Of a stretch of DNA of 64,000 bases, positions 3,448 through 25,634 are shown one piece after another. The notes below the pieces were generated by a model. That model saw only the letters and a list, made by a program, of their open reading frames with translations, did no database searches and was not told the DNA's origin. A program made the position numbers and the translations under genes. Location of the stretch: assembly GCA_947482825.1 (NCBI GenBank), contig CANKMT010000013.1, positions 1,714 to 65,713 of the forward strand. The letters run 5' to 3'. The stretch's first letter is position 1. Every line of letters begins with the position of its first letter. Source of the DNA: Betaproteobacteria bacterium (lineage in GTDB: Bacteria; Pseudomonadota; Gammaproteobacteria; Burkholderiales; SG8-39).

Positions 3448-3553
3448 ATTCAGGAGATTGTATTTCGGATCCCCTCGCCATTATTGACTCTCCGGTCAGT
3501 TGGTGTACTGATGTCGATACAATACGAGGATCCATGGACTGCGGGACGCCGCC

Positions 3554-6551: not shown

Positions 6552-7847
6552 TCAGTACAGGCGCTGCGGCAGCCACATCGCAAGGCCCGGGAAGAAGATG
6601 AGGATCCACACCATGAGGATCATCACGGCAAGGAAGGGCAGCGAGCTTCGCGCAATGAACATCACTGAGAACTTCGGCAACACGCCGTGGATCGTAAAGA
6701 GATTCAGTCCGAAAGGCGGCGTGACCAGGCCGATTTCGGCCAGCAGCACGAACGTGACGCCCCACCATACGGGGTCGTAGCCCAGCTTCAATATCACCGG
6801 CATGACGAACGACAGCGTCAGCAGCATCATCGCCATCGAATCGAAGAACATGCCCAGGATCAGGTACAGGATTACGATCGCGAGCATGGTGCCGTACTTG
6901 CCTATGCCGAGGTCCAGCACGGCGGAGGACACCTTGGCGGTGGCGCCGAGGTCCTGCAGCACGAACGAGAGCAGCCGCGCCGCGAAGATGATGAACGCGA
7001 TCATTGCCGTGACCTTCACCGCCGAGAGCAGCGCGTTCCTGACCATCGCGTAACTCAGCGTGTTGTAGTACCACGCGATGCACAGTGCGAGGATTGCGCC
7101 GAGCGCGGAGGCTTCGGTGGGGGTCATGAGCCCGCCGAAGATCGAGCCCATCACCAGCAGGATCACCGCGAGCCAGGGCAGCATGTCCTTGATCGCGTTG
7201 ATCCGCTCGCCCCACGACGCCGGCTGCGAGCGCGGCGCGAGTTCGGGCTTGAGCTTGACCATCACGATCACGGTGAGCATCAACAGGAGCATGAGCACCA
7301 TGCCCGGAATCAGCGCCGCGGCGAAGAGCCGCGCCACGGAGACGTTTTCCCACGAACCGTAGACGATCAGGATCAGGCTCGGCGGCACAAGCACGCTCAA
7401 GGTCCCGCCCACCGCGATCGCACCGATCGAGAGCTTGGGGTCGTACCCGCGTTTCTCCATTTCCGGGTACGCGATCATGCTGAACGTCGCCGCCGCCGCC
7501 ACGCTCGACCCTGAGATCGCGCCGAACACGCCGTTGGCCGCTATGACCACCGAAGCGAGCCCCCCCGGCAGCCAGCCCAGCCATTTGTCGAGCGCCGCGA
7601 AAAGGACGTTCACCGCGCCGCTGCCCGAAAACACCGCGCCCATGAAAATGAACAGCGGCATGGCGAGCAGCGTGAAGGAGTTGAGCGACTCCCAGGCCGT
7701 CCACGCCATTTGCACGAGCGGCTTGTCCACGGCAAACACCAGCCCGATCGAGGCGGCCACCGCCATCGCCACGCCGATCTCGACGCCGAGCGCGAGCAGG
7801 AGGAGCAACCCTCCCATGAGCAGCGCCGAAACGATCTCCGGGCTCAT
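6552..7847 (-). CDS. dctM: TRAP transporter large permease
   Basis: About 12 TM helices, AMPLFIFMG, GAISGSSVA, GGTLSVLVPPS, GLVTPPFGLNLF. Confidence 0.93.
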   Translation of the reverse strand: MSPEIVSALLMGGLLLLLALGVEIGVAMAVAASIGLVFAVDKPLVQMAWTAWESLNSFTLLAMPLFIFMGAVFSGSGAVNVLFAALDKWLGWLPGGLASVVIAANGVFGAISGSSVAAAATFSMIAYPEMEKRGYDPKLSIGAIAVGGTLSVLVPPSLILIVYGSWENVSVARLFAAALIPGMVLMLLLMLTVIVMVKLKPELAPRSQPASWGERINAIKDMLPWLAVILLVMGSIFGGLMTPTEASALGAILALCIAWYYNTLSYAMVRNALLSAVKVTAMIAFIIFAARLLSFVLQDLGATAKVSSAVLDLGIGKYGTMLAIVILYLILGMFFDSMAMMLLTLSFVMPVILKLGYDPVWWGVTFVLLAEIGLVTPPFGLNLFTIHGVLPKFSVMFIARSSLPFLAVMILMVWILIFFPGLAMWLPQRLY

Positions 7848-7848
7848 C

Positions 7849-8373
7849 TCAGAAATCCTCCGCGCCGAATTCGTCCACGACGCGGCCTGAGCGGAGGCGC
7901 TCGAGCGCCTTCACAAGCTGGCCCAGGAGGACCAGCGCGAACAGCGTGAAGCCCGCCGGAATCGCCATCTGCGGCCACTTGAGCGGCGTCCTCAGCAACG
8001 AATTGGAGCGCATGTCGCGCGTGAAGGAGTCGCCGAGAAACTTCCAGCTCACCCAGGCCGCCACCGAAACGCACGCCAGGCCCAGGACGAGCGACGCGAT
8101 GCGGATGTATCCGGTGGTTCGCGGATCCAGCCTTTCCACGATGAACGTGATGCGGATGTGCCCTTTCTCCTGCGCGCAGTAGGCCAGGCCCAGGAAGCTC
8201 ACCGCGACCATCGCGTAACCGCCCAGCTCGTCGCTGAGGATCATCGGGTTCTTCAGCACGTAGCGCGAGACCACCTCGAGCATCGTAAGCACGACGATGG
8301 CCAGCAGCACGGCACCGGCCGCGTAGCCGGTGCCGTACGACAGCCTTTCGACGAACCGCGCGAGCCTTTGCAT
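7849..8373 (-). CDS. dctQ: TRAP transporter small permease
   Basis: Four TM helices, SRYVLKNP..SDELG, GHIRITF. Lies between dctP and dctM. Confidence 0.9.
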   Translation of the reverse strand: MQRLARFVERLSYGTGYAAGAVLLAIVVLTMLEVVSRYVLKNPMILSDELGGYAMVAVSFLGLAYCAQEKGHIRITFIVERLDPRTTGYIRIASLVLGLACVSVAAWVSWKFLGDSFTRDMRSNSLLRTPLKWPQMAIPAGFTLFALVLLGQLVKALERLRSGRVVDEFGAEDF

Positions 8374-8394
8374 CGCCGCCGCGCCGGATTGCAG

Positions 8395-9486
8395 TTACTT
8401 CGCCATGTCGCGGATGAAGCCGACCGAAGGCCCTTTGGCATGGGTGGCCGCAATGCGCAACACGTCCTTGCCGCTTGGGCCCGCGGTGTCGAGCCATTCC
8501 TTGACCACCGGCTGCATGAGCGCCATGGCTTTGCGCACCTCGGCGTCGTCCGGGACGATCATCTCGGTCTTGGTCGAGCGGATCCACAGGTTGTAGGTGT
8601 TTTCCATCTGCTCGATCGCGGTCGCCATCTCGCCGGTCAACTGGGCCGAGGCGCGCAACAGGCCTTCCTTCTGCCGCTGATCGAGCTTGTCCCATGCCTT
8701 GACGTTGACGAGGATGTATTGGGGGAAGATCGGCGTGATCGGCCAGATGGATACGTACTTGGCAAGCGCGGTCAGGCCCCGCTCGGCGCCGAAGCTCTTG
8801 CTGGTCGTGATCGCATCGACCGTGCCGCGGGAAAGGGCCTCTTCGATCTCGGCCATCGACAGCGTGAGCGGGCTGCCGCCGAGGTCGCGCAGGGCCGAAG
8901 TCTGGGTGCGACCGGAAGCGCGCATCTTCACGCCCTTGAAATCGGCCAGCGTCTTGATCGGCTTGTTGCCCCAGAGCGCGTTGTTGGCCAGCGAAATCGC
9001 CGAGCCGAGCACCTTGAATCCGGCTTGTTTGGTTGCATTGTCGAGGACCGCCATCATTTTCGGGTCAGTGATCGCGAGGGCGTATTCGGTCGCGCCGTTG
9101 GGCATCTCGGAGAACAGCCCCGGGATGCCGCCGAAGTCGAGCAGCGGGTAGGTTCCCGAGGCCGCCGCGATCGACTGCGTGCCCATGAGCACACGGCCAT
9201 CGCCGACCGCGAAGGCCGAATCCATGATGCCGAAGAGTTTTTCCTTGATGTCGAGCTTGACCGTGCCACCAGTGTATTGAGTTACGAGCTGTTCGTAGCG
9301 GCCGCCCGGACGGAACGGCCAGACCAGGATGTTGCCGCGCCCGTAGGCGCCTTCCCAGTTGAACGAAAGCGTGGTGGGTGCGGCCGGTTTGGGTTGCGCG
9401 TGGACCGTGAATGAGGCGGCCGCAAATGCGATCGCGGAGCACAGCAACGGCAGTGCCGCCATCGTGAATCGTCTGCTGACTTTCAT
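8395..9486 (-). CDS. dctP: TRAP substrate-binding protein
   Basis: Signal peptide, DFKGVKMRASG (conserved Arg), EIEEALSRGTVDA. ATGA overlap with the upstream gene. Confidence 0.85.
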   Translation of the reverse strand: MKVSRRFTMAALPLLCSAIAFAAASFTVHAQPKPAAPTTLSFNWEGAYGRGNILVWPFRPGGRYEQLVTQYTGGTVKLDIKEKLFGIMDSAFAVGDGRVLMGTQSIAAASGTYPLLDFGGIPGLFSEMPNGATEYALAITDPKMMAVLDNATKQAGFKVLGSAISLANNALWGNKPIKTLADFKGVKMRASGRTQTSALRDLGGSPLTLSMAEIEEALSRGTVDAITTSKSFGAERGLTALAKYVSIWPITPIFPQYILVNVKAWDKLDQRQKEGLLRASAQLTGEMATAIEQMENTYNLWIRSTKTEMIVPDDAEVRKAMALMQPVVKEWLDTAGPSGKDVLRIAATHAKGPSVGFIRDMAK

Positions 9487-13903: not shown

Positions 13904-15085
13904 CTAGAGCTTGAGGCGCGTCTCGACCAGCCGCCCAAAAAAGGCGGCGCCCAGCGGCAAGGCATCGTCATTGAAATCGTAGCCGGGATTGTGCACTTCG
14001 CATCCGTGCCCCTCGCCCGGGCCGTTGCCGATGTTGATGTAGCAGCCGGGCACGCGCTCGAGCATGTAGGAGAAGTCCTCCGAACCCATCACGAGGTCGG
14101 GGTTGCGGTTGACGTTCTGTTCGCCGACCAGGTCGTTGCAGATCCGGGCGGCAAACTCGGCTTCCTTAGGGTCGTTGACGGTCGGGTTGAACAGGACGCG
14201 AAAATCCACCTCCGCCGTGGCGCCATGCGCTTCAGCCGTGCCTTTGGCGATGCGCTTCATCGAGGACTCGAGCTTGGCCATCACGTCCTTGCTGAAGGCG
14301 CGCGCCGTTCCGCCGATATGCGCGGTCTGCGGGATCACGTTGTAGGCGTCGCCCGCCTGGATCTTGGTGACCGACACGACCGCGGTGTCGATCGGCCGCA
14401 CGTTGCGCGACACGATGCTCTGGAGCGCAACCGCGATATGGGCTGCGACGAGCGTCGAGTCCACCCCGGTCTCCGGGCGCGCGCCGTGCGAACCCTTGCC
14501 GGTGACCTTGATGTCGAAAAATGCGCCGCCGGCCATCATCGGCCCGGACTTTACGTTGAAACTGCCGACCGGAATGCTCGGCCGGTTGTGCATGCCGAAA
14601 ATCGCCTCGCAAGGGAATTTCTCGAACAGGCCCTCGTCGACCATGGCCTTGGCGCCGCCCAGGCCTTCCTCGGCCGGCTGGAAGATGAAATGCACCGTGC
14701 CATCGAAATTGCGCGTCTCCGCGAGATACTTCGCCGCCCCAAGCAGCATCGTGGTGTGACCGTCATGGCCGCAGGCGTGCATGCGCCCCGTGTGAGTGGA
14801 TCGGTGGGCAAAGGTGTTCGCCTCCTCGATCGGCAGGGCGTCCATGTCGGCGCGCAATCCCAAGGTGCGGGGGCTGGTGCCGACGCGCAGCGTGCCGACC
14901 ACGCCGGTCTTGGCCAAGCCGCGGTGCACGTGGATGCCAAAAGACTTGAGCTTCGCGGCGACGAGGTCCGAAGTGCGCGTTTCCTGGAATCCGAGCTCCG
15001 GATGCGCATGGATGTCGCGCCTCCACTCGGTCATGTCCTTGTGGAAGGCGTAGAAATGCGGGTCGATGCGGTCCCTGGCGGTCAT
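13904..15085 (-). CDS. M20 aminoacylase/hippurate-hydrolase-like amidohydrolase
   Basis: HAHPELGFQE, LRADMDALP, MHACGHDGH, FQPAEEG, GSEDF, HNPGYDFND. Confidence 0.93.
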   Translation of the reverse strand: MTARDRIDPHFYAFHKDMTEWRRDIHAHPELGFQETRTSDLVAAKLKSFGIHVHRGLAKTGVVGTLRVGTSPRTLGLRADMDALPIEEANTFAHRSTHTGRMHACGHDGHTTMLLGAAKYLAETRNFDGTVHFIFQPAEEGLGGAKAMVDEGLFEKFPCEAIFGMHNRPSIPVGSFNVKSGPMMAGGAFFDIKVTGKGSHGARPETGVDSTLVAAHIAVALQSIVSRNVRPIDTAVVSVTKIQAGDAYNVIPQTAHIGGTARAFSKDVMAKLESSMKRIAKGTAEAHGATAEVDFRVLFNPTVNDPKEAEFAARICNDLVGEQNVNRNPDLVMGSEDFSYMLERVPGCYINIGNGPGEGHGCEVHNPGYDFNDDALPLGAAFFGRLVETRLKL

Positions 15086-15138: not shown

Positions 15139-16239
15139 CTATAGTACCCGCCCGCTCGCCTCGTCGATCAAGTGCATGTTCGCAAGATCGGCGACCAGTT
15201 TCATCGGCTTGCCAGCCAGGGCGCCGGCGTTCGGGTTGACCCGGCCACAGACCTCCGTGCCCTCGACGAGGAAATGCACCAGGGTCTCCATGCCCATGGG
15301 TTCGGTTACCTCCAGCGGCACCTCGAAAGGGTGCTGGTCGGGCTCCGCATGGGGGCGTTGCTCGATGAGGTGCTCCGGGCGGATCCCGAAGAGCAGCTTG
15401 CCGGCGCCGAGGTGTGCTTTGTACCGTTCGACGCGGTTGGCCGGCACCGGGAAGGCGATCGCCTCGGACAGCTTCACGCGCAAGCCCCCGGCCGCCGCCT
15501 CCAGCTTGCAGGGAATGAAGTTCATCGCCGGCGATCCGATGAAACCGGCCACGAAGCGCGTGGCCGGGAAATGGTAGAGGTCGTTGGGCGTGCCGACCTG
15601 CTCGATCAGGCCGCCGTTCATGACCACCACCCGGTCGGCCAGCGTCATCGCCTCGACCTGGTCGTGAGTGACGTAGACGGTGGTGGTGCGCACTTTCTGG
15701 TGGACTTTCTTGATCTCGGTGCGCATCTGCACGCGCAGTTTGGCATCGAGGTTCGACAGCGGCTCGTCGAACAGGAACACCTTGGGGTCGCGCACGATCG
15801 CGCGGCCCATCGCAACGCGCTGGCGCTGGCCGCCCGAGAGCTGCTTGGGCTTGCGCTCGAGCAATTCCGAGATGTCGAGGATCCTCGCCGCGTTCTCGAC
15901 ACGCCGGGCGATCTCGGCCTTTGGCGCCTTCTTCAGGCGCAGGCCGAACGACATGTTCTCGTACACCGTCATGTGCGGATACAGGGCGTAATTCTGGAAC
16001 ACCATCGCGATGTCGCGGTCCTTGGGAGGCACGTCGTTCACGACTTCCTCGCCGATCAGGATGTCACCGGCGGTGATGTCCTCCAGCCCGGCGATCATGC
16101 GCAGCGTCGTGCTCTTGCCGCAACCCGAAGGGCCAACCAGTACGACGAACTCCTCATCGGCGATCTCGAGATCGATGCCCCTCACCGCCGGCGTGTCGTC
16201 GTAATTCTTGACCACTTTGCGCAGTATTACCTTGGCCAT
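15139..16239 (-). CDS. CUT1 (MalK/UgpC-like) ABC ATPase
   Basis: [29 protein letters not shown]-terminal TOBE/OB region. Confidence 0.95.
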
Positions 16240-16245
16240 CGATCT

Positions 16246-17118
16246 CTATCCCTTGGTCGCGCCGGCGGTCAGGCCGGCGATGTAGTAGTCCATCAGGAAG
16301 GCGTAGATGATCAGCGGCGGCGCCGCCCCCAGCAGCGCGCCTGTCATGATCTGGCCCCACGTGAACACGTCGCCGCGAATCAGTGTGGTGATGATGCCCA
16401 CGGGGAGCACGAGCTGGTCGGCCGAGGTCGTGAAGGCCAGCGGGTACAGGAACTGCGCCCACGAAACGGTAAAGGCGAAGATGGTCGCTGCGATGATCCC
16501 GGGCAGCGCAACCGGGATGAAGATGCGCGTGAGGATCTGCAGGTACCCCGCCCCGTCGATCAGCGCGGCTTCGTCGAGCTCCTTGGGGATGCTCGCGAAG
16601 TAGCCGATCATGATCCAGGTCGCGAACGGCACGGTGAGCGTCGGATACAGGATCACGAGAACGTACCAGCGGTTGATCAGCTCGATGCCGGTGAACTCGG
16701 TCACCCAGACGAAGATCTGGAAAAGCGGGATGAACAACAGCGTCTCGGGAATCAGGTAGGTCAGGAACACACCGGTGGCGAGCGTGCCGGAGCCCCAGAA
16801 CTTCATGCGCGAGAGCGCGAACGCGGCCGGGATGCTGATCGCCATCGTGATCGCCACGACCAGCACCGACACCATGGCCGAATTGCGGAAGAACGTGAGG
16901 TAGGTCTCCGTCGTAAGCAGCTCGATGTAGTTGTCGAGCGTTGGCGCATGGACCCACCACGGCGAAGTGGCCGAAGCGATCTCGGCGTTCGACTTGAAGG
17001 AGGTCAGCAGCATGTAGAACGGCGGCGTGAGGAAGAACACCACGAAGATGCACAGGAAAAAGTACGACCAGATCATCGCCCGGCGGCGATCGTCTTTCAT
17101 GCTGCGTGACTTCGCCAT
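16246..17118 (-). CDS. carbohydrate-type ABC permease (MalG-like)
   Basis: EAA loop ELDEAALIDGA, six TM helices. Confidence 0.92.
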   Translation of the reverse strand: MAKSRSMKDDRRRAMIWSYFFLCIFVVFFLTPPFYMLLTSFKSNAEIASATSPWWVHAPTLDNYIELLTTETYLTFFRNSAMVSVLVVAITMAISIPAAFALSRMKFWGSGTLATGVFLTYLIPETLLFIPLFQIFVWVTEFTGIELINRWYVLVILYPTLTVPFATWIMIGYFASIPKELDEAALIDGAGYLQILTRIFIPVALPGIIAATIFAFTVSWAQFLYPLAFTTSADQLVLPVGIITTLIRGDVFTWGQIMTGALLGAAPPLIIYAFLMDYYIAGLTAGATKG

Positions 17119-17990
17119 CAGTTCTCGGCCCCTCGTTTGGTGATGTCGCGCAGGATGAAGATCGCGAAGATCGCGAGGATCGGGAACATGAACAGCGACA
17201 CCGAGGCGCCCAGCGGCAGGTCGCTGCCCTCGATGCCCACCTTGAAGGCCCAGGTGGCGAAGACGTGCGTGTTGTCCAGCGGACCGCCGGCCGTCAGCAC
17301 GCGCACGATGTCGAAGTTGGCGAACGTCACGATCAGCGAGAAGAGCACCGTGATCGCGATGATGTTGCGCATCATCGGGATCGTGATGTACCAGAGCTTC
17401 TGCCACCAGTTGGCCCCGTCGATCGCGGCCGCCTCGTAGAGCTGCTCCGGAACGGATTTCAGCGCCGCAAGGTACATGATCATGAAAAACGGTGCCCCAA
17501 CCCACACATTGACCAGGATCACCGCGAAGCGCGCCCAGCCAACCTCGCCCAGCCAGCCGATCGGCTCGAAACCGCCTTTGACGAGCAGCCAGTTGAACGC
17601 GCTATAGGACGGGTCGAACAGCCACAGCCACGCGAGCGTGCTCATGGCCGGCGGGATCACCCAGGGCACCAGCAGCATGCCGCGCCATTTGCGCTGGCCC
17701 TTGACCGGCACGTTGTGCACGAAATGCGCGACGCAAAATCCGATGAGCGCTTTGAAGACCACAGCGGTGACGGCGAACACGACCGATTGCTTCACCACCA
17801 TCCAGAACGTTTCCCGACTGAACAGGAAAGTGAAGTTGTCGAATCCGACGAAGCGCTCCATCCCCTTGTTCAGCGTCGCCAGGTGCAGCGAGTAGAGCGC
17901 CGGGTAGAGCACCAGCAGGACGATGATGAGGATGAGCGGAAGCGCCATCGCGAACGCAATGGTCGACTTCCGCCGCAGGAATTTCCGCAC
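17118..17990 (-). CDS. carbohydrate-type ABC permease (MalF-like)
   Basis: LYEAAAIDGA EAA loop, LLVPWVIP. Confidence 0.92.
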   Translation of the reverse strand: MRKFLRRKSTIAFAMALPLILIIVLLVLYPALYSLHLATLNKGMERFVGFDNFTFLFSRETFWMVVKQSVVFAVTAVVFKALIGFCVAHFVHNVPVKGQRKWRGMLLVPWVIPPAMSTLAWLWLFDPSYSAFNWLLVKGGFEPIGWLGEVGWARFAVILVNVWVGAPFFMIMYLAALKSVPEQLYEAAAIDGANWWQKLWYITIPMMRNIIAITVLFSLIVTFANFDIVRVLTAGGPLDNTHVFATWAFKVGIEGSDLPLGASVSLFMFPILAIFAIFILRDITKRGAEN

Positions 17991-18005: not shown

Positions 18006-19355
18006 TCAGGTGCGCATGAAGCCTTCGAGCTCGGTAGCCGCCCAGCCGAGGACCTTGTCCATCGACTCGCCCCCTTGCGTGTACTTGCCCACCATCTTGG
18101 TCATGATCGCCTGGGTGTAGATCTGGTTGGCGATCTTGGGCGGCGCAGGGTAGGCCGAGATCTGAAGCACCTGCCCCGGCTTGGGCGGGTAGTGGTACAG
18201 GGTTCCCTTAGGCGGCCCTTCTTCGGCCCAGGTCTTGAAGTCGTTGAATTTCCCGAAAGCCGGAATGTCGTAGCCCTGGCTCGCGGCCACCATCTTCTCG
18301 ACCACCGCGCGCTCGGAGATATGCATCATCAGGCTCTTGGCCGCGGCCTTGTTCTTGGAGAACTTCCAGATCCCCCAGAAATACGGCAGGTACGGCTGCA
18401 CGCGCCCCTTGGGGCCGGCCGGCGCCGGGAACGTCCAGCACTGTTCGGCCACCTTCGGAGCGTCGCGCTTGGCCACCGCCCATGCGCTCGGCGGATTCAT
18501 GATCAGCGAGCCCTTGCCCGAGACCAGCCATCGGTTGTTCGAACCGTCGTCCCACGCGAATACGTCCGAAGGCAGCGCGGCGATGAGCTTCTTCATGTAC
18601 TCCATCACCTGCTTTACGTTGTCGGATTTCACGGTTATGTTCCCCTTGGCATCGACCAGAGTCGCGCCATAGGCTGCGAAGATCGTGCCCGCAGTGTCCA
18701 CCGAGTCCGACGTCTGGCCGAAGCCGATGCCGAAAGGCACGCCGGCCTTGTTGCATTTGACCGCAGCGTCGAGGAAAGCGTCCCACGTCCACTTGTCGGC
18801 CAATGCCTTGTCGGGGGCGGCGCCTGCCGGATACATCTTCACTACATCGAGACCGGCATGCTGCTTGAGCAGGTCGATACGGCCGCAAGGTCCCTTGATC
18901 TGGCTGCCGGGCGTCGCGGGAATCGCGACCCACTTCCCATCGACCTTGCCGAGGTATTCGATCAACGGCGACACCGGGCCGTTCTTCGCCACCAGCGCCT
19001 TCATCACGTCATCGACCGGCTCGAGGTCCTTCGACTTGTCCGCCGGCCACCAAGTGGGGAACGCGAGCATGTCGTGGCCCGCCTTGGCCTGCGCCTCGGC
19101 TGCGATCGTCAGCAGGTTCTTCTGCCCCTGCGACGGAATGTAGTCGATCTTGATGTCGACCTTCTCCTTCGCGGCCCACTCCTTGCAAGCAGCGGTGAGC
19201 ACATCATTCGCGCCCGGCACCCAGTGATCCCAGAAGCCGACTTCGAGCTTGCCGGCGGCGTACGAGGTGCGGATATGCGGGAACCCCAGCGTGGCGGCGG
19301 ACACCGCTGCGGTGGACTTCAGAAAACGACGACGCGTGAATTTCCTTGTGGTCAT
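18006..19355 (-). CDS. CUT1 ABC substrate-binding protein with Tat signal
   Basis: TRRRFLK twin-arginine signal, SBP_bac-type fold, first gene of the ABC operon. Confidence 0.88.
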   Translation of the reverse strand: MTTRKFTRRRFLKSTAAVSAATLGFPHIRTSYAAGKLEVGFWDHWVPGANDVLTAACKEWAAKEKVDIKIDYIPSQGQKNLLTIAAEAQAKAGHDMLAFPTWWPADKSKDLEPVDDVMKALVAKNGPVSPLIEYLGKVDGKWVAIPATPGSQIKGPCGRIDLLKQHAGLDVVKMYPAGAAPDKALADKWTWDAFLDAAVKCNKAGVPFGIGFGQTSDSVDTAGTIFAAYGATLVDAKGNITVKSDNVKQVMEYMKKLIAALPSDVFAWDDGSNNRWLVSGKGSLIMNPPSAWAVAKRDAPKVAEQCWTFPAPAGPKGRVQPYLPYFWGIWKFSKNKAAAKSLMMHISERAVVEKMVAASQGYDIPAFGKFNDFKTWAEEGPPKGTLYHYPPKPGQVLQISAYPAPPKIANQIYTQAIMTKMVGKYTQGGESMDKVLGWAATELEGFMRT

Positions 19356-19513: not shown

Positions 19514-19855
19514 TTAGGCTTCGCTCCCGGAGCCAGCCGTTGGCGGGAGGACTCTTGGCGCAGGTCTCGGGCGTGGCTGCCACGAAACACTGACATCGCC
19601 GTTGACGAACGTCTGGCATGCCATGCGGTAACCGTTGGCGAAATCGGCTTCGGTGAGGTGCTTGCGCTCCTTGTCCTTGATGGCGTCGGTGTTCTCGAGG
19701 CCCGACTCGATCCGGCACTTGCATGTGCCGCACAGCCCCCCGCCGCACTTGAAAGGGATTCCACCCTTCTCCCTCAACGAGACGCGAAGCAGGTTGCTGT
19801 GCGCCGGCGCCTGCGCCGACTTGTTGTCGTTGGTGACGAAGGTGACCGTGACCAT
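19514..19855 (-). CDS. [2Fe-2S] ferredoxin (plant/adrenodoxin type)
   Basis: CGGGLCGTC...RMACQ (C-x4-C-x2-C...C). Confidence 0.92.
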   Translation of the reverse strand: MVTVTFVTNDNKSAQAPAHSNLLRVSLREKGGIPFKCGGGLCGTCKCRIESGLENTDAIKDKERKHLTEADFANGYRMACQTFVNGDVSVSWQPRPRPAPRVLPPTAGSGSEA

Positions 19856-20172
19856 CAGATCTTCACCAGCCGGTTGCCGCTCCGCCCCGGCGCACCGGCC
19901 TTGAGGTCGGCCAGCTGCCCGAGTTCGTGCCGGGCCTTATCCAAGCTGTCGAAATGGGGAAAAAACTTGGCCGGAACCTGGTTTACGACTGGGGGGATTG
20001 CTTCGTCGATCACCAGGATTTTGGCCTCGCTCAGCAATTCACCGATAACGAAACGGGCGCGGATCCGACCATGGGCGAAATAGTCGTAGGTTTCTGCCGG
20101 ACGGACCCCGTCGCCGGGCTCGGTCCGGAACTGGCCGGGCTTGCTGGTGAGAATGACGTACGTGGGAGGCAT
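19855..20172 (-). CDS. hypothetical protein between two ferredoxins (105 aa)
   Basis: Stop overlaps the next start by 1 nt, 7 nt from the upstream ferredoxin, ordinary globular composition, no Cys. Confidence 0.7.
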   Translation of the reverse strand: MPPTYVILTSKPGQFRTEPGDGVRPAETYDYFAHGRIRARFVIGELLSEAKILVIDEAIPPVVNQVPAKFFPHFDSLDKARHELGQLADLKAGAPGRSGNRLVKI

Positions 20173-20179
20173 GCCGGGG

Positions 20180-20509
20180 TCAGGCGGCGGCCGGCCGAGA
20201 CGGAACGATGGCCGGAATTCCGTCCTGGGACAGTTCGAGATCGTGGGTGATCCATAGCTGGCAAATCAGGCGGCAACCGTCGGCGATGTGTTCGCCGAGG
20301 ACCTTTTTCTCCTTCCAGTTGGGTTCCGGCAGGTGCTCTGCGCCCGACAGAATCCGGCTGGTGCACTTGCCGCACTTCCCCATTCCGCAGCCATACGACA
20401 GGTTCGGAAACGGGAATTGCTTGATGCCGGCGCGCACGACGAGGTTGGTGTTTTCCTTGACCTCGCCTGCGTGGGCCTGGCCGTTCTTGTGCATGACGAT
20501 CTTGGGCAT
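20180..20509 (-). CDS. [2Fe-2S] ferredoxin
   Basis: CGMGKCGKC...RLICQ. Confidence 0.9.
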   Translation of the reverse strand: MPKIVMHKNGQAHAGEVKENTNLVVRAGIKQFPFPNLSYGCGMGKCGKCTSRILSGAEHLPEPNWKEKKVLGEHIADGCRLICQLWITHDLELSQDGIPAIVPSRPAAA

Positions 20510-20535
20510 TAGACTCACATCAGTCGCAGAAATCG

Positions 20536-20705
20536 TAAAACAGTATACTAAAATCCATAAAAAGATGCTTGGTCTTGACCGATAACAATTAATGTCAAAT
20601 GTACAGTATAATATTTACTATGTTGATTATCAATACTTATTTTTAAAACAATACCGCCCCTTCTTCGCTTCAACTTGCGTATGGCTGCCATCTAAAATAG
20701 TATAC
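20536..20705. promoter_or_regulatory. AT-rich divergent promoter region with repeated TAAAAYAGTATAC sites
   Basis: TAAAACAGTATAC (20536-20548) and TAAAATAGTATAC (20693-20705), 12/13 identical with palindromic GTATAC core. Partial third site CAGTATA near 20604 overlapping TATAAT (20607-20612). Confidence 0.6.
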
Positions 20706-20737
20706 GTAATTGCTCATATTACCCAACGGAGACCCCC

Positions 20738-21508
20738 ATGGCCCAGCTGATGAACCAGGATGAATTCCGCTCTGCCCTCGAAAACGCAATCAAGGGAAAG
20801 AGCGCTAACAAGTCTCCCTTCAGCGTGGCATGGGCCAGCGGCAAGCTATCCCGCGCGCACCTGTGCCGCTGGGCCGAGAACCATTATCACTACGTGGGCC
20901 CGTTCGCCGACTATCTCGCCGCGATCTACTCGCGCATGCCCGCCCACTACGTGGAGGCCAAGGACTTCCTGCTGGCCAACATGTACGAGGAGGAGATCGG
21001 CGGCGACCGGCATACCGACCTGTTGATCCGGTTCGCCGAGTCCTGCGGCACGACGCGCGAACGGATCACCGACCCTGACAACATGTCGGCGACCACCCGA
21101 GGCCTGCAGAGCTGGTGCTACGCGGTGGCGATGCGCGAAGACCCGATCGTCGCAGTCGCCGGCCTGGTTGTCGGCCTGGAGTCGCAGGTGCCGTCGATCT
21201 ATCGCCGGCAGGCGCCCACCCTGCGCGAAAAGTACAAGTTCACCGATGAGGAGATCGAATTCTTCGACCTGCACATCGTCTCGGACGAGATCCATGGCGA
21301 GCGCGGCTACCAGATCGTGCTCGAACACGCCGACACCCCGGAGATGCAGCAACGCTGCCTCAAGATCTGCGAAGTCGGTGCCCAGATGCGCCTGCTTTAC
21401 ACGACGGCCCTCTACAACGACTACGTGGCGAAAGACATTCCGCTGTCGGAGCTGGAGATGGCCGAACAGCGCGTCCCGGTTGCAGAACGCGAGTTGCTGC
21501 AGGCCTAG
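20738..21508 (+). CDS. heme-oxygenase-like diiron oxidase (TenA/PqqC/CADD superfamily)
   Basis: E85-x6-H92, E148 (GLESQVP), H179-x3-D183-x2-H186: the CADD-type diiron ligand pattern. GGAG RBS. Confidence 0.85.
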   Translation: MAQLMNQDEFRSALENAIKGKSANKSPFSVAWASGKLSRAHLCRWAENHYHYVGPFADYLAAIYSRMPAHYVEAKDFLLANMYEEEIGGDRHTDLLIRFAESCGTTRERITDPDNMSATTRGLQSWCYAVAMREDPIVAVAGLVVGLESQVPSIYRRQAPTLREKYKFTDEEIEFFDLHIVSDEIHGERGYQIVLEHADTPEMQQRCLKICEVGAQMRLLYTTALYNDYVAKDIPLSELEMAEQRVPVAERELLQA

Positions 21509-21512
21509 ACCC

Positions 21513-21992
21513 TTGAAGACCGCATTCAAACTGGAACTTTCCGAGGCGCAGGCCATGGCCGCCGCGGCGCTCGCCAAAGCGGCCGCCATCGGCGTCACCG
21601 AAACCGTCTGCGTCTGTGACGATGGCGGCTATCCGATTTGCCTCGAGCGCATGGACGGCGCGCGTATCACCGGCCCGCAGATCGCCTGGAACAAGGCGTT
21701 CACGGCGGCCGGTCACCGCCGCTCGACCCACCTCTTCAACCAGCCGCCGAATGGCCCCGCCCTGCCCGGCAACGAGGCTTTCGGGATCCAGTGGAGCTTC
21801 GAGGGCAAGTTCGCCGTTTTCGTAGGCGGCTTCCCGATCGTGGTGAACGGCGAAGTCGTCGGCGGCATCGGGCTCTCGGGCGGCAACGGCGAGCAGGACA
21901 TTGCCTGCGGCCTTGCCGGGCTGAAAGCGCTCAGTGACTTGCTGGCGCGGCAAGGGCATTCCGTGCTGGTCGAAGCGGACATCAAGAAGTGA
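21513..21992 (+). CDS. GlcG/HbpS-type heme-binding protein
   Basis: VCDDGG..LERMDGA, IAWNKAFTA, GGFPIVVNGEVVGGIGLSGG. Confidence 0.88.
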   Translation: MKTAFKLELSEAQAMAAAALAKAAAIGVTETVCVCDDGGYPICLERMDGARITGPQIAWNKAFTAAGHRRSTHLFNQPPNGPALPGNEAFGIQWSFEGKFAVFVGGFPIVVNGEVVGGIGLSGGNGEQDIACGLAGLKALSDLLARQGHSVLVEADIKK

Positions 21993-22684
21993 CGATTCAA
22001 CGGCCGGGCTCACTTGGCAAGGAGGTCGCCGACCAGCTGCGCCGCCTGATCCTCACTGGCCGGCACAAGCCCGGGGACCGGCTCGTCGAGGACAGGCTGT
22101 CCGCCCAACTCGGGGTTTCGCGGGTCCCGGTTCGGGAGGCGTTGCGAACGCTTGCTGCCGAAGGCCTGGTAGATATCCCTCCCCGGCGCGGCGCATCGGT
22201 TGCAGCGATCTCACCCGGCATCGCGACAGACCTGGTCGAAGTCCGCGCAACCCTCGAAGGGCTCAACGCCCGGCTCGCCGCACGCCACAACGAGGACGCC
22301 ATCATCGGGCAGCTGCGCCAGGTGCTCAGCGAAGGAAACAGCGCGGCCGAATCAGGCAACGTAGATGATCTGGTCCGGCTGAATGCGGCGTTCCACGACA
22401 AGCTCGCCGAGGCCGGAAGGAACAGCATCCTGTGGGACATCATGCGCACGCTGCGCGAGCGTACCGCGCTGGTCTTTGCGGCGAACACGGCCTCCCGCTC
22501 GCACGAGGACTGGGACGAGCATTCACGCATCCTTGCCGCAGTCATCGACGGTGATGAGGAACTCGCTGCCCTCCTCGCGACGCGGCATGTGTATCAGGCA
22601 GCGGATGCTGCTTTTGCCGCCAAGGCTGCGGCGACCGGCGAGCCTGCAGCCGAGTCGGAGCAGTTAACGAAGAGGAGCCTCTAG
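21989..22684 (+). CDS. GntR/FadR (FCD) transcriptional regulator
   Basis: PGDRLVE..LSAQLGVSRVPVREAL wHTH, FCD NAAFH...EHSRI. GTGA overlap with the upstream gene. Confidence 0.93.
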   Translation: MTIQRPGSLGKEVADQLRRLILTGRHKPGDRLVEDRLSAQLGVSRVPVREALRTLAAEGLVDIPPRRGASVAAISPGIATDLVEVRATLEGLNARLAARHNEDAIIGQLRQVLSEGNSAAESGNVDDLVRLNAAFHDKLAEAGRNSILWDIMRTLRERTALVFAANTASRSHEDWDEHSRILAAVIDGDEELAALLATRHVYQAADAAFAAKAAATGEPAAESEQLTKRSL

Positions 22685-24777
22685 GCTTCCTGCGGCAACC
22701 TCACCGCATCCGCCCGGCGCAAGTCCTCGAGGGGGATGTGACAGGCAATGCGATGCGCGGGGCTCGCAATCCTCCAGGGCGGCGCCTCGGTTTCGCACAG
22801 CTTTCCGATCTTGCGCGGGCACCGATGCTGAAACCTGCACCCGCCGATCAGCCCGTCCTTTTCAACCACATCGCCGCGCAGCCGAATGCGTCCTCGTCCT
22901 GCGCTGCTGCCGGGCGAGCGGCCCACTTCGGGGATCGCGGACAGCAGGGCTTCGGTATACGGGTGGAACGGCGGCTTCAGCACCTCTGCGGCCGGCCCTT
23001 CCTCGACGATCGCGCCCCGGTACATGACGGCCACGCGGTCGGCAATGTGCGCGATGACCGACAGGTCGTGGGAAATGAACAGATAGGCCACATTGAGCCG
23101 ATCGCGCAGTTCCGCCAGCACGTTGAGCACATAGGCCTGCACCGAAACGTCGAGCGCGGAAACCGCTTCGTCGCAAACAATGAAGCGCGGCTCGGTGGCC
23201 AGCGCGCGCGCAATGCCGACGCGCTGTTTTTCGCCGCCTGACAACTGGTGAGGGTAGCGGCTTGCGTAGGAGGAAGGCAGGCGGACCAGGTCGAGCAGCG
23301 CCGCGACCTTTGCATCCAGTTCGTTGCCGCGCGCAAGGCCGAAGAGCGTCAGCGGCCGCGCCACGATCTCGCCCACCGTCTTGCGCGGGTTGAGCGACGA
23401 ATCCGGGTTCTGGAAAATGATCTGGGCGATGCGCCGATGCTCGTGCAGCGCCTTGCCGGAAAGCCTGCCGAAATCCTCACCCAGGATACGGACCTCGCCA
23501 TCGGAGGGCTCGATGAGGCGCACCAGCATACGCCCGAGCGTCGACTTGCCGCAGCCGGACTCGCCGACCAGGCCGAGGACTTCGCCCGGGGCGATGTCGA
23601 GCGTCACGCCATCGACCGCCCGCACGCGCGGCGGATCGAAGCGCAGCGGAAAGCCGCCGGAGCGATCAAACCTGAGATTGTCGAACACGCCTCCCATCTC
23701 GTACTGCTTGGCAAGGTCCTTCATCTCGACGAGCGGCGCGGCATCCGGGTGCGCGGCCGACCTGGCGCCACGCGCTTGTGCTTCCGGCGCCGGCCAAGGT
23801 GTGTCGGCAAGTTCTTCCGCGCGCCAGCAACTCACGGCATGCCCGATGCCGGAAAGGACCGGCGGCTCGCCTTTGCAGCGCTCGACGACGAAATGGCAAC
23901 GCGGATGAAAGATGCAACCCGAGGGCGGCGAAGCCAGGTCCGGGAAACGTCCCGGGATCGGCGCGAGGCGAAGCTGGCGCTCGGCCACCCGCGGCAGCGA
24001 CGCCAAAAGGCCCTTGGTGTAGGGATGCTTCGGCGCGTACAACACGTCGCTGGTTGGACCGCTCTCGACGACGCGACCCGCGTAAAGCACGCACACGTCG
24101 TCGCAGATCCGCGCCACGACGCCCAGATTGTGGGTGATGTAGAGCATCGACAGCCCTCGGTCGCGCCGCAGGCGCTCGAGAAGGTCGAGGATCTGCGCCT
24201 CGATCGTCACGTCGAGCGCGGTCGTCGGCTCGTCCAGGACCAGCAGTTCAGGCGAACACGCGAGTGCGGTAGCGATCAGCGCGCGCTGTTTCATGCCGCC
24301 CGAAAGCTGGTGCGGGTAGGCGCGCGCCACGTCTTCGGGGCGGGGAATGCCGACCTCTTCGAGCAATCGCCTCGCTTCGATGGCGGCGTCGCCATCGGAC
24401 AGCGCGCGGTGCAGTACGAGCGGCTCGGCGATCTGGCGGCCGACCTGGATCGCGGGATTCAGCGAAGTGAACGGGTCCTGAAACACCATGCTGATGCGCT
24501 CGCCGCGCAACAGCCTGCGCTCTTCCGCCGCCAGGTCGAGCAAGGATCGGCCGCCGAACAGGATGCGTCCGCCGGGGATTCGCGCTTCGCTTGCAAGCAG
24601 GCCCAGCACCGCCAGCGCCGTCGTGCTCTTGCCGGAACCCGACTCACCCACCAGCCCGAGCGCCCGGCCCTTGCCGATCTCGAACGAAACGTTATCAAGC
24701 GCGCGCAGCCAGCCGCCGCCGGCCGGGTATTCGAGCGTGAGGCTCTCGACCTTGAGGACGGGAACTTCCGTGCTCAT
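22681..24777 (-). CDS. fused DppD-DppF peptide/nickel ABC ATPase
   Basis: Two GESGxGKS Walker A motifs, two YPHQLSGG signatures, two oligopeptide C-terminal Cys motifs (CIFHPRC, CRFQHRC). Confidence 0.92.
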
Positions 24778-25634
24778 CCGCGGCCCTTGCGAAGGCGCGG
24801 GTCGAGGATCTCGCGCAGGCCGTCTCCGACCAGATTGACTGCGATCACGGTAATGCACAGGAGCGCGCCCGGCGCGAGCGCCACCCACGGCGCGGTGTCG
24901 ATGAAGGGACGCGCTTCGGCGATCATCAGACCCCAGTCGGAACTCGGCGGCTGCACGCCAAGTCCGAGAAAGCTGAGCGCGGCGCCGAGCATGATGGCAA
25001 ACGTCACGCGCAGGGCTGCCTCGACGATGATCGGCGGCCATGCGTTCGGCAGGATCTCGGCTGCGAGGATGTACCACAGCCGCTCGCCGCGGGCGCGCGC
25101 CGCCAGCACGAACTCCTCGCGCGCGATCTCGAGCGTGACGGCCCGCGTGAGCCGCGCCATGATCGGCACGTAGATGATCCCGACCGCGAACGCGGTCTTC
25201 CACACATTGGGCGTGGAAAGCGAAAGCAGCAGCAGGCCCATGAGGATCGGCGGGACCGAAATGACCAGGTCGATCGCGCGCATGATCGACTCGTCGATCC
25301 GCCCCCCTTTGTAACCGGCCGTCAGCCCGAGCGGGACGCCGACCAGCAGGCTCACGAAGGTCGCGCCCAATCCCATCAGCAGCGACAGGCGCGCGCCGTA
25401 CAGCAACCGGCTGAGGACATCGCGCCCGAACTCGTCGGTGCCGAGCCAATGCGTCGCGTCGGGCGGCGTCATCCTCGCCATGATGTCCATCTGGTCGTAC
25501 GGGAACGGCGCGACCAGCGGCCCGAAGAGCGCCGCGAGCACAACCAATCCGAAAATAGTTCCGCCTGCGACGAAGCTCGCAGGCCACGCGCGACGGTACG
25601 CCGCCGTGGCCTCAGTGAGCGGCAGAGCTGCCAT
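24774..25634 (-). CDS. DppC-like ABC permease
   Basis: HWLGTDEFGRDVLSR, EFVLAARARG, ILPN, LSFLGLG. Confidence 0.92.
   Translation of the reverse strand: MAALPLTEATAAYRRAWPASFVAGGTIFGLVVLAALFGPLVAPFPYDQMDIMARMTPPDATHWLGTDEFGRDVLSRLLYGARLSLLMGLGATFVSLLVGVPLGLTAGYKGGRIDESIMRAIDLVISVPPILMGLLLLSLSTPNVWKTAFAVGIIYVPIMARLTRAVTLEIAREEFVLAARARGERLWYILAAEILPNAWPPIIVEAALRVTFAIMLGAALSFLGLGVQPPSSDWGLMIAEARPFIDTAPWVALAPGALLCITVIAVNLVGDGLREILDPRLRKGRG

Follow-up and report, generated by a model that had tools for sequence, protein, structure and literature searches.

A minimal dip cluster in a betaproteobacterial genome probably encodes the core of a dipicolinate 3-monooxygenase with a heme-oxygenase-like diiron component

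The six genes located between positions 19514 and 22684 of the window (the whole stretch of 64,000 nucleotides that was analysed) very probably constitute the conserved core of a dip (dipicolinic acid catabolism) cluster, encoding a dipicolinate 3-monooxygenase controlled by the repressor DipR (probability of about 0.85). This reading follows from the orthology of their products to DipD, DipF, DipJ and DipR and from the presence of putative DipR operators. Judged by this orthology, the system is not new and corresponds to the published dip cluster, of which the window carries a minimal form, with six genes versus thirteen. The preliminary description of the locus had proposed a regulated, ferredoxin-linked diiron oxygenase of the heme-oxygenase-like (HDO) fold acting on an external small molecule, and the DipD orthology argues for this view. 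Its statement that no characterised example of the architecture was known does not hold, as the HDO is a DipD ortholog and the GntR-type regulator is a DipR ortholog with a published operator.

The link to the characterised system was established through the sequences of two DipR footprints reported from Alcaligenes faecalis JQ135 (Jiang 2024, PMC11472048). Searches with the 24-nt footprint gave four exact matches among metagenome contigs (L086-L089) and none in 317 genomes from the family to which the window belongs. On contig L088 both published footprints were matched exactly, and their positions, combined with the published distances from transcription start site to start codon (14 and 30 bp), lead exactly to the ORF starts at 3528 and 3699. 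The regulator encoded there reproduces the published DipR numbering (F28, R63, R67, V89, M100, H196 and H218), and the structural gene in fourth place, which is preceded by a GTATAC box (i.e. at the dipD position), encodes an HDO. The HDO of the window, present as a single copy in its genome, is 82% identical to this protein (over 241 aa, E-value 2e-152) and is thus orthologous to a characterised protein, DipD of A. faecalis JQ135. In that strain dipD was shown by mutation to be essential for making 3-hydroxydipicolinate, the hydroxyl oxygen of which originates from O2. Work by Mu et al. (2022, AEM) is said to have implicated dipF, dipG, dipJ, dipK and dipL in dipicolinate hydroxylation. The named hosts of dip clusters are Bordetella, Achromobacter and Cupriavidus necator (PMC11472048), and the same genera are found among the loci compared here.

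All six ORFs of the preliminary description were found again at the same positions (Table 1), and the layout that it had read from them, with HDO, GlcG/HbpS and GntR genes diverging from a ferredoxin-105-aa protein-ferredoxin unit, was borne out by the ORF and Pfam analyses. The start of dipR and the stop of dipF overlap by 4 nt. Comparison of gene neighbourhoods in 85 loci of Alpha- and Betaproteobacteria revealed that the HDO, ferredoxin-small protein-ferredoxin, GlcG and GntR genes occur together in nearly all of them, in several differing arrangements, which is a linkage far beyond chance; the HDO does co-occur with the ferredoxin trio (small protein in 81/85).

Table 1. Features of the dip locus and of its neighbourhood in the window.
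Feature	Position	Strand	Evidence or remark
M20 amidohydrolase (neighbour)	13904-15085	-	TIGR01891, 381 bits
Sugar-type ABC importer, ATPase	15139-16239	-	UgpC/MalK-like
ABC importer, permeases	16246-17118, 17118-17990	-	Neighbours
ABC importer, binding protein	18006-19355	-	Neighbour
Fer2 ferredoxin at dipL position, 113 aa	19514-19855	-	Pfam Fer2, 1e-12
dipK-position protein, 105 aa	19855-20172	-	Without Pfam family
DipJ ortholog, ferredoxin, 112 aa	20180-20518	-	Pfam Fer2, 3.7e-07
Divergent promoter/operator region, 219 bp	20519-20737		AT-rich; two GTATAC
DipD ortholog, HDO, 256 aa	20738-21508	+	Haem_oxygenas_2 (PF14518), 1e-37; TENA_THI-4
DipF ortholog, GlcG/HbpS-like (DUF336)	21513-21992	+	PF03928, 3e-33
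DipR ortholog, GntR/FadR-type repressor	21989-22684	+	GntR and FCD domains

DipR of A. faecalis JQ135 represses the dip cluster at 5'-GTATAC-3' operators and is released by dipicolinate; its residues R63 and R67 are involved in DNA binding, and H196 and H218 in effector binding (Jiang 2024 NAR, PMC11472048). The window regulator shares 55% identity (over 200 aa) with DipR of L088, and in the alignment these residues correspond to R45, R49, H178 and H200. The spacer separating the divergent units has a GC content of approx. 44% (approx. 63% in the surrounding DNA), in agreement with the AT-rich shared promoter described before. Within it, GTATAC hexamers, the putative DipR operators, are present in both divergent promoters (20543-20548 and 20700-20705), each inside a common 13-nt repeat, TAAAA[C/T]AGTATAC, and an imperfect copy, GTATAA (20606-20611), overlaps a -10-like hexamer of the minus strand. 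The window contains three GTATAC sequences, including the two in the spacer, and the entire genome (5.06 Mb) contains 156, and in 74 of 78 related loci the 200 nt preceding the HDO gene contain the hexamer. A genome-wide GTATAC search, covering also the surroundings of two candidates for a BenC/MmoC-like reductase (on C14 and C12), revealed no convincing further DipR-regulated units. The hexamer on C14 does not look like an operator, being placed inside a GC-rich stretch under long ORFs, and nor does the only other close pair (on C4), which is GC-rich and overlapped by long ORFs.

The window cluster shares with the thirteen-gene cluster of A. faecalis JQ135 (compared via L088) orthologs of dipD, dipF, dipJ and dipR (82%, 74%, 79% over the part available, and 55% identity, respectively), the ferredoxin-small protein-ferredoxin order, GTATAC in the promoters and the tested DipR residues. 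In contrast to the latter, it lacks dipA (TauE-like), dipB (encoding a 505-aa membrane protein), dipC (GGT-like), dipE (aldehyde dehydrogenase), dipG (FNR-type reductase), dipH and dipM; dipD and the ferredoxin unit are directly divergent, dipR closes the dipD-dipF unit in the same orientation, and the cluster is bordered by genes for an M20 amidohydrolase and an ABC importer. In tblastn searches of the whole genome, DipA and DipB of L088 gave no match, and the best matches of DipC (29%), DipE (37%) and DipG (39%) were all located on other contigs and are not orthologs. The genome without orthologs of dipA, dipB, dipC, dipE and dipG is a metagenome-assembled one of 91% completeness; a DipG ortholog is also absent from relatives with the minimal cluster.

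It is uncertain whether the M20 and ABC importer genes belong to the dip system. The same neighbours were found in close relatives (L001, L002, L004 and L085), in L006 an M20 gene lies 24 nt downstream of the ferredoxin gene without a transporter, and M20 genes adjoin the core also in other arrangements (L068, 30% identity, and L081, 48% identity). No GTATAC was found upstream of the M20/ABC unit, hairpins are present between this unit and the ferredoxin operon, and a terminator-like hairpin (19503-19490) follows the last ferredoxin gene. The differing importer and the recurring M20 gene (L006, L068 and L081), together with the lack of dipA, dipB, dipC, dipE and dipG and a regulator that shares just 55% identity with A. 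faecalis DipR, could point to the same machinery acting on another substrate, e.g. a carboxylate of a different pyridine or aza-aromatic ring, or an N-acylated precursor freed by the M20 hydrolase. Such a specificity is unlikely, given that DipD shares 82% identity with its characterised counterpart and belongs to one tight family lacking sub-clades at that level, that clusters with and without dipE/dipG carry DipD at an equal level of identity, that the effector-binding histidines and the operator are kept, and that the transporter unit is set apart by hairpins and has no operator. Members of the DipD family from hundreds of species share 80-96% identity, and the closest full-length protein outside it reaches 47%; therefore a single substrate specificity is likely. 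With dipicolinate as the substrate, the lack of dipE, of the permease genes dipA and dipB and of the hydrolase gene dipC implies that uptake and any later steps would be encoded differently.

Sequence and structural modelling place DipD of the window in the HDO superfamily, as it combines the seven-helix heme-oxygenase-like fold with the E/H/E/H/D/H ligands. In a phmmer alignment to CtCADD, the CADD ligands E81, H88, E142, H174, D178 and H181 correspond to E85, H92, E148, H179, D183 and H186, the full set recognised in the preliminary description; among 48 homologs (down to 23% identity) the last five are invariant and E85 is kept in at least 90%. The AF2 model (pLDDT of 93.9) has its best PDB fold match in CtCADD (TM 0.92, rmsd 1.9 Å), and its Foldseek matches include CADD, UndA, HrmI, FlcD and BesC. 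Public databases annotate the HDO only as "iron-containing redox enzyme family protein" or "pyrroloquinoline-quinone synthase", the literature searched contains no link between HDOs and dipicolinate, and the paper on MboA/MboB (2026, PMC13185094) calls its own pair possibly the first characterised dedicated HDO-redox pair. These facts would suit an uncharacterised, orphan multicomponent HDO system; the direct orthology to the published dip cluster, anchored through the footprints on L088, makes this quite improbable.

CtCADD and PqqC are the best PDB matches of the protein in both sequence and fold, but a self-sacrificing p-aminobenzoate synthase of the CADD type or a cofactor synthase like PqqC is hardly conceivable here. 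The former is excluded because the sacrificial Tyr27 and Lys152 are missing (Ser29 and Gln158 at these positions, exactly as given in the preliminary description, which had argued against such a synthase) and the TIGR04305 score of 100 bits is below the cut-off of 200, and the latter because the TIGR02111 score (52.7 bits) is below its cut-off of 240 and the genome lacks pqqE: a search of the whole genome gave no PqqE match, consistent with the absence of pqq genes reported before. Moreover, the genomic context is catabolic and under repressor control. DipD resembles CtCADD and NePabS (PDB 1rcw, 8va9 and 9pj4) in fold and in the six identical ligands at approx. 25% identity, and, unlike these self-sacrificing proteins, is predicted to hydroxylate an external substrate catalytically and in dependence on partner proteins. 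An oxygenase cleaving the C-S bond of organosulfonates, suggested by TauE (PF01925) and Oxidored_molyb genes adjoining the cluster in Achromobacter (L081-L084), was dropped as barely plausible, since the published cluster contains the TauE-like gene as dipA, the sulfite-oxidase-like molybdoenzyme is not kept in other loci, and the window carries neither.

Among the partner proteins, the DipJ ortholog (Cys motif C-x4-C-x2-C...C), whose 79% identity refers to the ORF opening the dipJ unit of L088, and the ferredoxin at the dipL position are both of the plant type with a [2Fe-2S] cluster; they were found in 81 and 79 of the 85 loci, respectively, and the nearest solved relatives of the latter are plant-type ferredoxins and NqrF. 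The putative DipK and DipL assignments were made by conserved gene order only. The 105-aa protein at the dipK position, which is always encoded between the ferredoxins, has approx. 100 homologs, some of which are named "ferredoxin" by NCBI; this identity was rejected because the window protein contains no cysteine. It had no match in Pfam or NCBIfam, nor in the PDB by profile or sequence, and its AF2 model (pLDDT of 88, six beta-strands and one helix) matches no PDB fold (best E-value 0.5, TM 0.33), for which reason an MmoB/DmpM-like effector was also rejected. DipF (74% identity to its L088 counterpart, 159 aa) has homology to the A. faecalis protein starting from TTG at 21513, giving 159 aa, and the gene caller placed the start at ATG 21555 (145 aa); its nearest solved relatives are 2a2l, NahX and EfgA.

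In the proposed mechanism, DipD would be the component that activates O2 and attaches a hydroxyl group to C3 of dipicolinate (pyridine-2,6-dicarboxylate), yielding 3-hydroxydipicolinate. A flavin/[2Fe-2S] reductase would pass electrons from NAD(P)H to the two [2Fe-2S] ferredoxins DipJ and DipL, these would re-reduce the diiron site, and a diiron-peroxo species would then attack the pyridine ring. Since the minimal form is devoid of the dedicated reductase gene dipG, the electrons must come from a reductase encoded outside the cluster. DipF and the Cys-less DipK may be obligate helpers, e.g. in coupling, assembly or metal loading, because they accompany DipD in nearly every genome. The chances appear evenly balanced that DipD is the first known HDO-fold hydroxylase of an aromatic (pyridine) ring and is active solely within a multi-protein assembly. 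In this view, and as indicated by the six-gene form, the essential components would be two plant-type ferredoxins, the DUF336 protein and the 105-aa protein, which has no cysteine and whose fold is not represented in the PDB; the reductase would be interchangeable, and the recurring M20 amidohydrolases would perhaps stand in for the GGT-like DipC where the downstream route is a variant one.

[quoted passage not shown] Within the papers searched, HDO enzymology and dip-gene microbiology do not cite each other. The DipD system may therefore constitute a natural HDO example that is validated by genetics, has a multi-protein electron supply of its own and adds a new reaction type, aromatic hydroxylation, to this superfamily; the minimal cluster indicates the core partners and could guide in vitro reconstitution.

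With MboA/MboB of mangotoxin biosynthesis the system has in common an HDO encoded together with a dedicated Fe2S2/flavin electron donor. However, MboB, encoded in a biosynthetic cluster, is a single reductase and MboA desaturates a peptide (PMC13185094), whereas the window encodes two free ferredoxins and two non-redox small proteins, predicted to serve a catabolic ring hydroxylation, and no cluster reductase. The arrangement also resembles the ferritin-like diiron monooxygenases of bacteria such as sMMO, T4MO and phenol hydroxylase, in which electrons flow from an NADH reductase through a ferredoxin to a diiron hydroxylase assisted by a small cofactor-less protein, and DipG of other genomes is BenC/MmoC-like, as in the logic of these multicomponent monooxygenases. 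The components themselves are different: DipD is a single 28-kDa subunit of an unrelated, heme-oxygenase-like fold, DipK shows neither sequence nor fold similarity to the MmoB/DmpM effectors, and the ferredoxins of the window are of the plant type, not of the Rieske type.

The six genes of the preliminary description, which had been read there as a ferredoxin-fed system around a heme-oxygenase-like diiron oxygenase (HDO), were confirmed by the ORF list and domain scans. Their cluster is, with a probability of about 0.85, a dipicolinate (DPA) monooxygenase core under the control of the repressor DipR.

Features of the dip-type cluster in the window
Feature	Position (nt)	Strand	Remarks
FdxA (dipL position)	19514-19855	-	Fer2 domain
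105-aa protein (dipK position)	19855-20172	-	no family in domain scans
FdxB (DipJ)	20180-20518	-	Fer2 domain
GTATAC	20543		25 nt from ferredoxin start
Spacer between FdxB and HDO			219 bp; GC falls to ~44%
GTATAC	20700		38 nt from HDO start
HDO (DipD)	20738-21508	+	PF14518 (1e-37), plus TENA/THI-4
GlcG/HbpS-like protein (DipF)	end 21992	+	domain scan
GntR/FCD regulator (DipR)	21989-22684	+	domain scan

DipF probably starts at a TTG at 21513, 4 nt past the HDO stop; this gives 159 aa, as long as the A. faecalis protein, and the codon is also where homology sets in. A gene caller had chosen the ATG at 21555. Its nearest solved relatives are the DUF336 proteins 2a2l, NahX and EfgA.

In Alcaligenes faecalis JQ135, dipD is essential for the conversion of DPA to 3-hydroxy-DPA, with oxygen coming from O2, and DipR, a GntR/FadR repressor, binds GWATAC (GTATAC) until DPA releases it; two DipR DNase I footprint sequences have been published (Jiang et al. 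2024, PMC11472048). The 24-nt dipB-promoter footprint has exact matches in four metagenome contigs, and both footprints, spaced 92 nt, are present in the contig used as reference (L088). The dipA footprint (+1 to -22, TSS 14 bp from the start codon) and the dipB footprint (-12 to -35, TSS 30 bp from the start codon) predict starts at 3528 and 3699, respectively, both of which are L088 ORF starts, and the L088 regulator matches the published residue numbers F28, R63, R67, V89, M100, H196 and H218. The contig carries dipR (GntR/FadR regulator), dipA (TauE-like), dipB (505-aa membrane protein), dipC (GGT-like hydrolase), dipD (HDO), dipE (aldehyde dehydrogenase, ketoglutarate-semialdehyde-dehydrogenase-like), dipF (HbpS-like), dipG (Fer2-FAD-NAD reductase, BenC/MmoC-like), the putative small gene dipH and dipJ (ferredoxin), with one GTATAC box between dipC and dipD and two between dipH and dipJ. 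Window proteins share 82% (DipD), 74% (DipF) and 79% (DipJ, over the partial DipJ of L088) identity with these; DipR is 55% identical and keeps all four mutationally tested residues. The preliminary description knew of no characterised example of this architecture and had named orthology to a characterised enzyme as grounds for abandoning its proposal; the cluster is an orthologue of a published, genetically characterised system and is therefore already known.

GTATAC occurs 156 times in the 5.06-Mb genome and three times in the 64-kb window; two of these three copies lie inside the 219-bp spacer, each embedded in one copy of a shared 13-nt repeat. Among related loci, 74 of 78 carry GTATAC in the 200 nt preceding the HDO gene.

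Alignment by phmmer to CtCADD, a self-sacrificing pABA synthase, pairs CADD E81/H88/E142/H174/D178/H181 with HDO E85/H92/E148/H179/D183/H186, and bears out the replacement of Tyr27 and Lys152 by Ser29 and Gln158 given in the preliminary description. In 48 homologs, down to 23% identity, E85 shows at least 90% conservation and the other five ligands do not vary. In the structure and HMM comparison that had been proposed, the AF2 model (pLDDT 93.9) superposed best on CtCADD (TM 0.92, rmsd 1.9 Å), followed by PqqC, UndA, HrmI, FlcD and BesC, and the HDO scored far under the cut-offs of the curated CADD and PqqC models; pqqE was not found in the genome.

The HDO belongs to a large and unusually tight family: the search gave more than 1300 proteins, of which the top 120 all have at least 81% identity, at least 557 species genomes carry a relative, and clustering at 50% gave a single full-length representative, the next full-length relative being at 47%. 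Comparison of 85 loci (Bradyrhizobium, Cupriavidus, Achromobacter, Bordetella, Azospirillum, Ramlibacter and others) placed the ferredoxin-small protein-ferredoxin trio beside the HDO in 79-81, the GlcG protein in 75 and GntR in 73. Gene order and orientation vary among these loci. Lack of co-occurrence, which the preliminary description had named as a refutation, is thus not what the loci show; the linkage is real, and this part of the earlier interpretation stands, unlike the novelty of the system. Near the core, dipE (54 loci), dipB (45), dipG (30), dipA (25) and dipC (6) are found in only part of the 85, which leaves D, F, J, K, L and R as the invariable core.

Compared with the A. faecalis cluster, the window has a six-gene form in a genome without dipA, dipB, dipC, dipE and dipG orthologs. 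A whole-genome tblastn with L088 proteins found only DipD, DipF and DipR: DipA and DipB had no match, and the best matches of DipC, DipE and DipG (just 29%, 37% and 39%) were all on other contigs. The six-gene form recurs in relatives (L001 and L085, on contigs of 279 and 296 kb, and L002-L006), whose genomes each encode a reductase homolog at 36-40% identity but no DipG ortholog; in C. necator, by contrast, an ortholog is present (51%).

Beyond the orthology, operators, ligand set, fold and conserved partners established here, a catalytic route can be proposed. Electrons from NAD(P)H would enter a flavin/[2Fe-2S] reductase encoded outside this cluster and pass through DipJ/DipL to diferric DipD; the resulting diferrous form would activate O2 and hydroxylate DPA at C3, with the assistance of DipF and DipK. 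Mu et al. (2022) reportedly also implicated dipF, dipG and dipJ/K/L in DPA hydroxylation, and are said to have described DipD as without similarity to known oxygenases. Two BenC/MmoC-type Fer2-FAD-NAD reductase genes lie on other contigs of the genome (C14:22497-23507 and C12:20262-21224; 39% and 37% to DipG), with no DipR-type operator nearby; they are the only candidates there to feed the dip ferredoxins. An explicit link of DipD to the HDO class was not found in the literature searched, and a 2026 paper (PMC13185094) still presents MboA/MboB as perhaps the first characterised pair of an HDO and its dedicated redox partner, so that the cluster offers a modest opening for enzymology rather than a new kind of system.

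The 105-aa protein was rejected as a ferredoxin, as it has no cysteine, and as an MmoB-like effector, as neither PDB folds (best E 0.5, TM 0.33) nor a PDB profile search gave a match to its model (pLDDT 88; six strands and a C-terminal helix) or sequence. Some homologs (Roseococcus, Siccirubricoccus, Leptothrix) are labelled 'ferredoxin' at NCBI; as the window protein lacks cysteine and its confident model has no counterpart among PDB folds, this name looks wrong.

Adjoining the core in the window are genes for a sugar-type ABC importer and an M20 amidohydrolase, which seem to form a separate unit, judging from terminator-like hairpins and the absence of an operator. M20 amidohydrolases adjoin the dip core in four arrangements (window 13904-15085 (-), L006 3618-4754, L068 8446-9558 and L081 3958-5148), in L006 directly after the ferredoxin. 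They recur, in contrast to the GGT-like dipC with its 6 of 85 loci, and the M20 enzyme may serve instead as the hydrolase in one of the later steps of dipicolinate degradation. In Achromobacter (L081-L084), a sulfite-oxidase-like molybdoenzyme (8123-9355) and a 104-aa partner (7798-8112) lie directly upstream of the dip cluster; not seen in the other loci, the molybdoenzyme is probably an unrelated neighbour. On the other side of the window core, a peptide-type ABC transporter-like unit abuts dipR convergently. Its 968-aa ORF (22681-25587, -) is artefactual, owing to a long in-frame extension at the upstream end, past which the translation, inspected by eye, resembles a fused double-ATPase; two permease-like ORFs and one binding-protein-like ORF follow, to ~28104, and the third GTATAC of the window (22955) falls within coding sequence of this unit.
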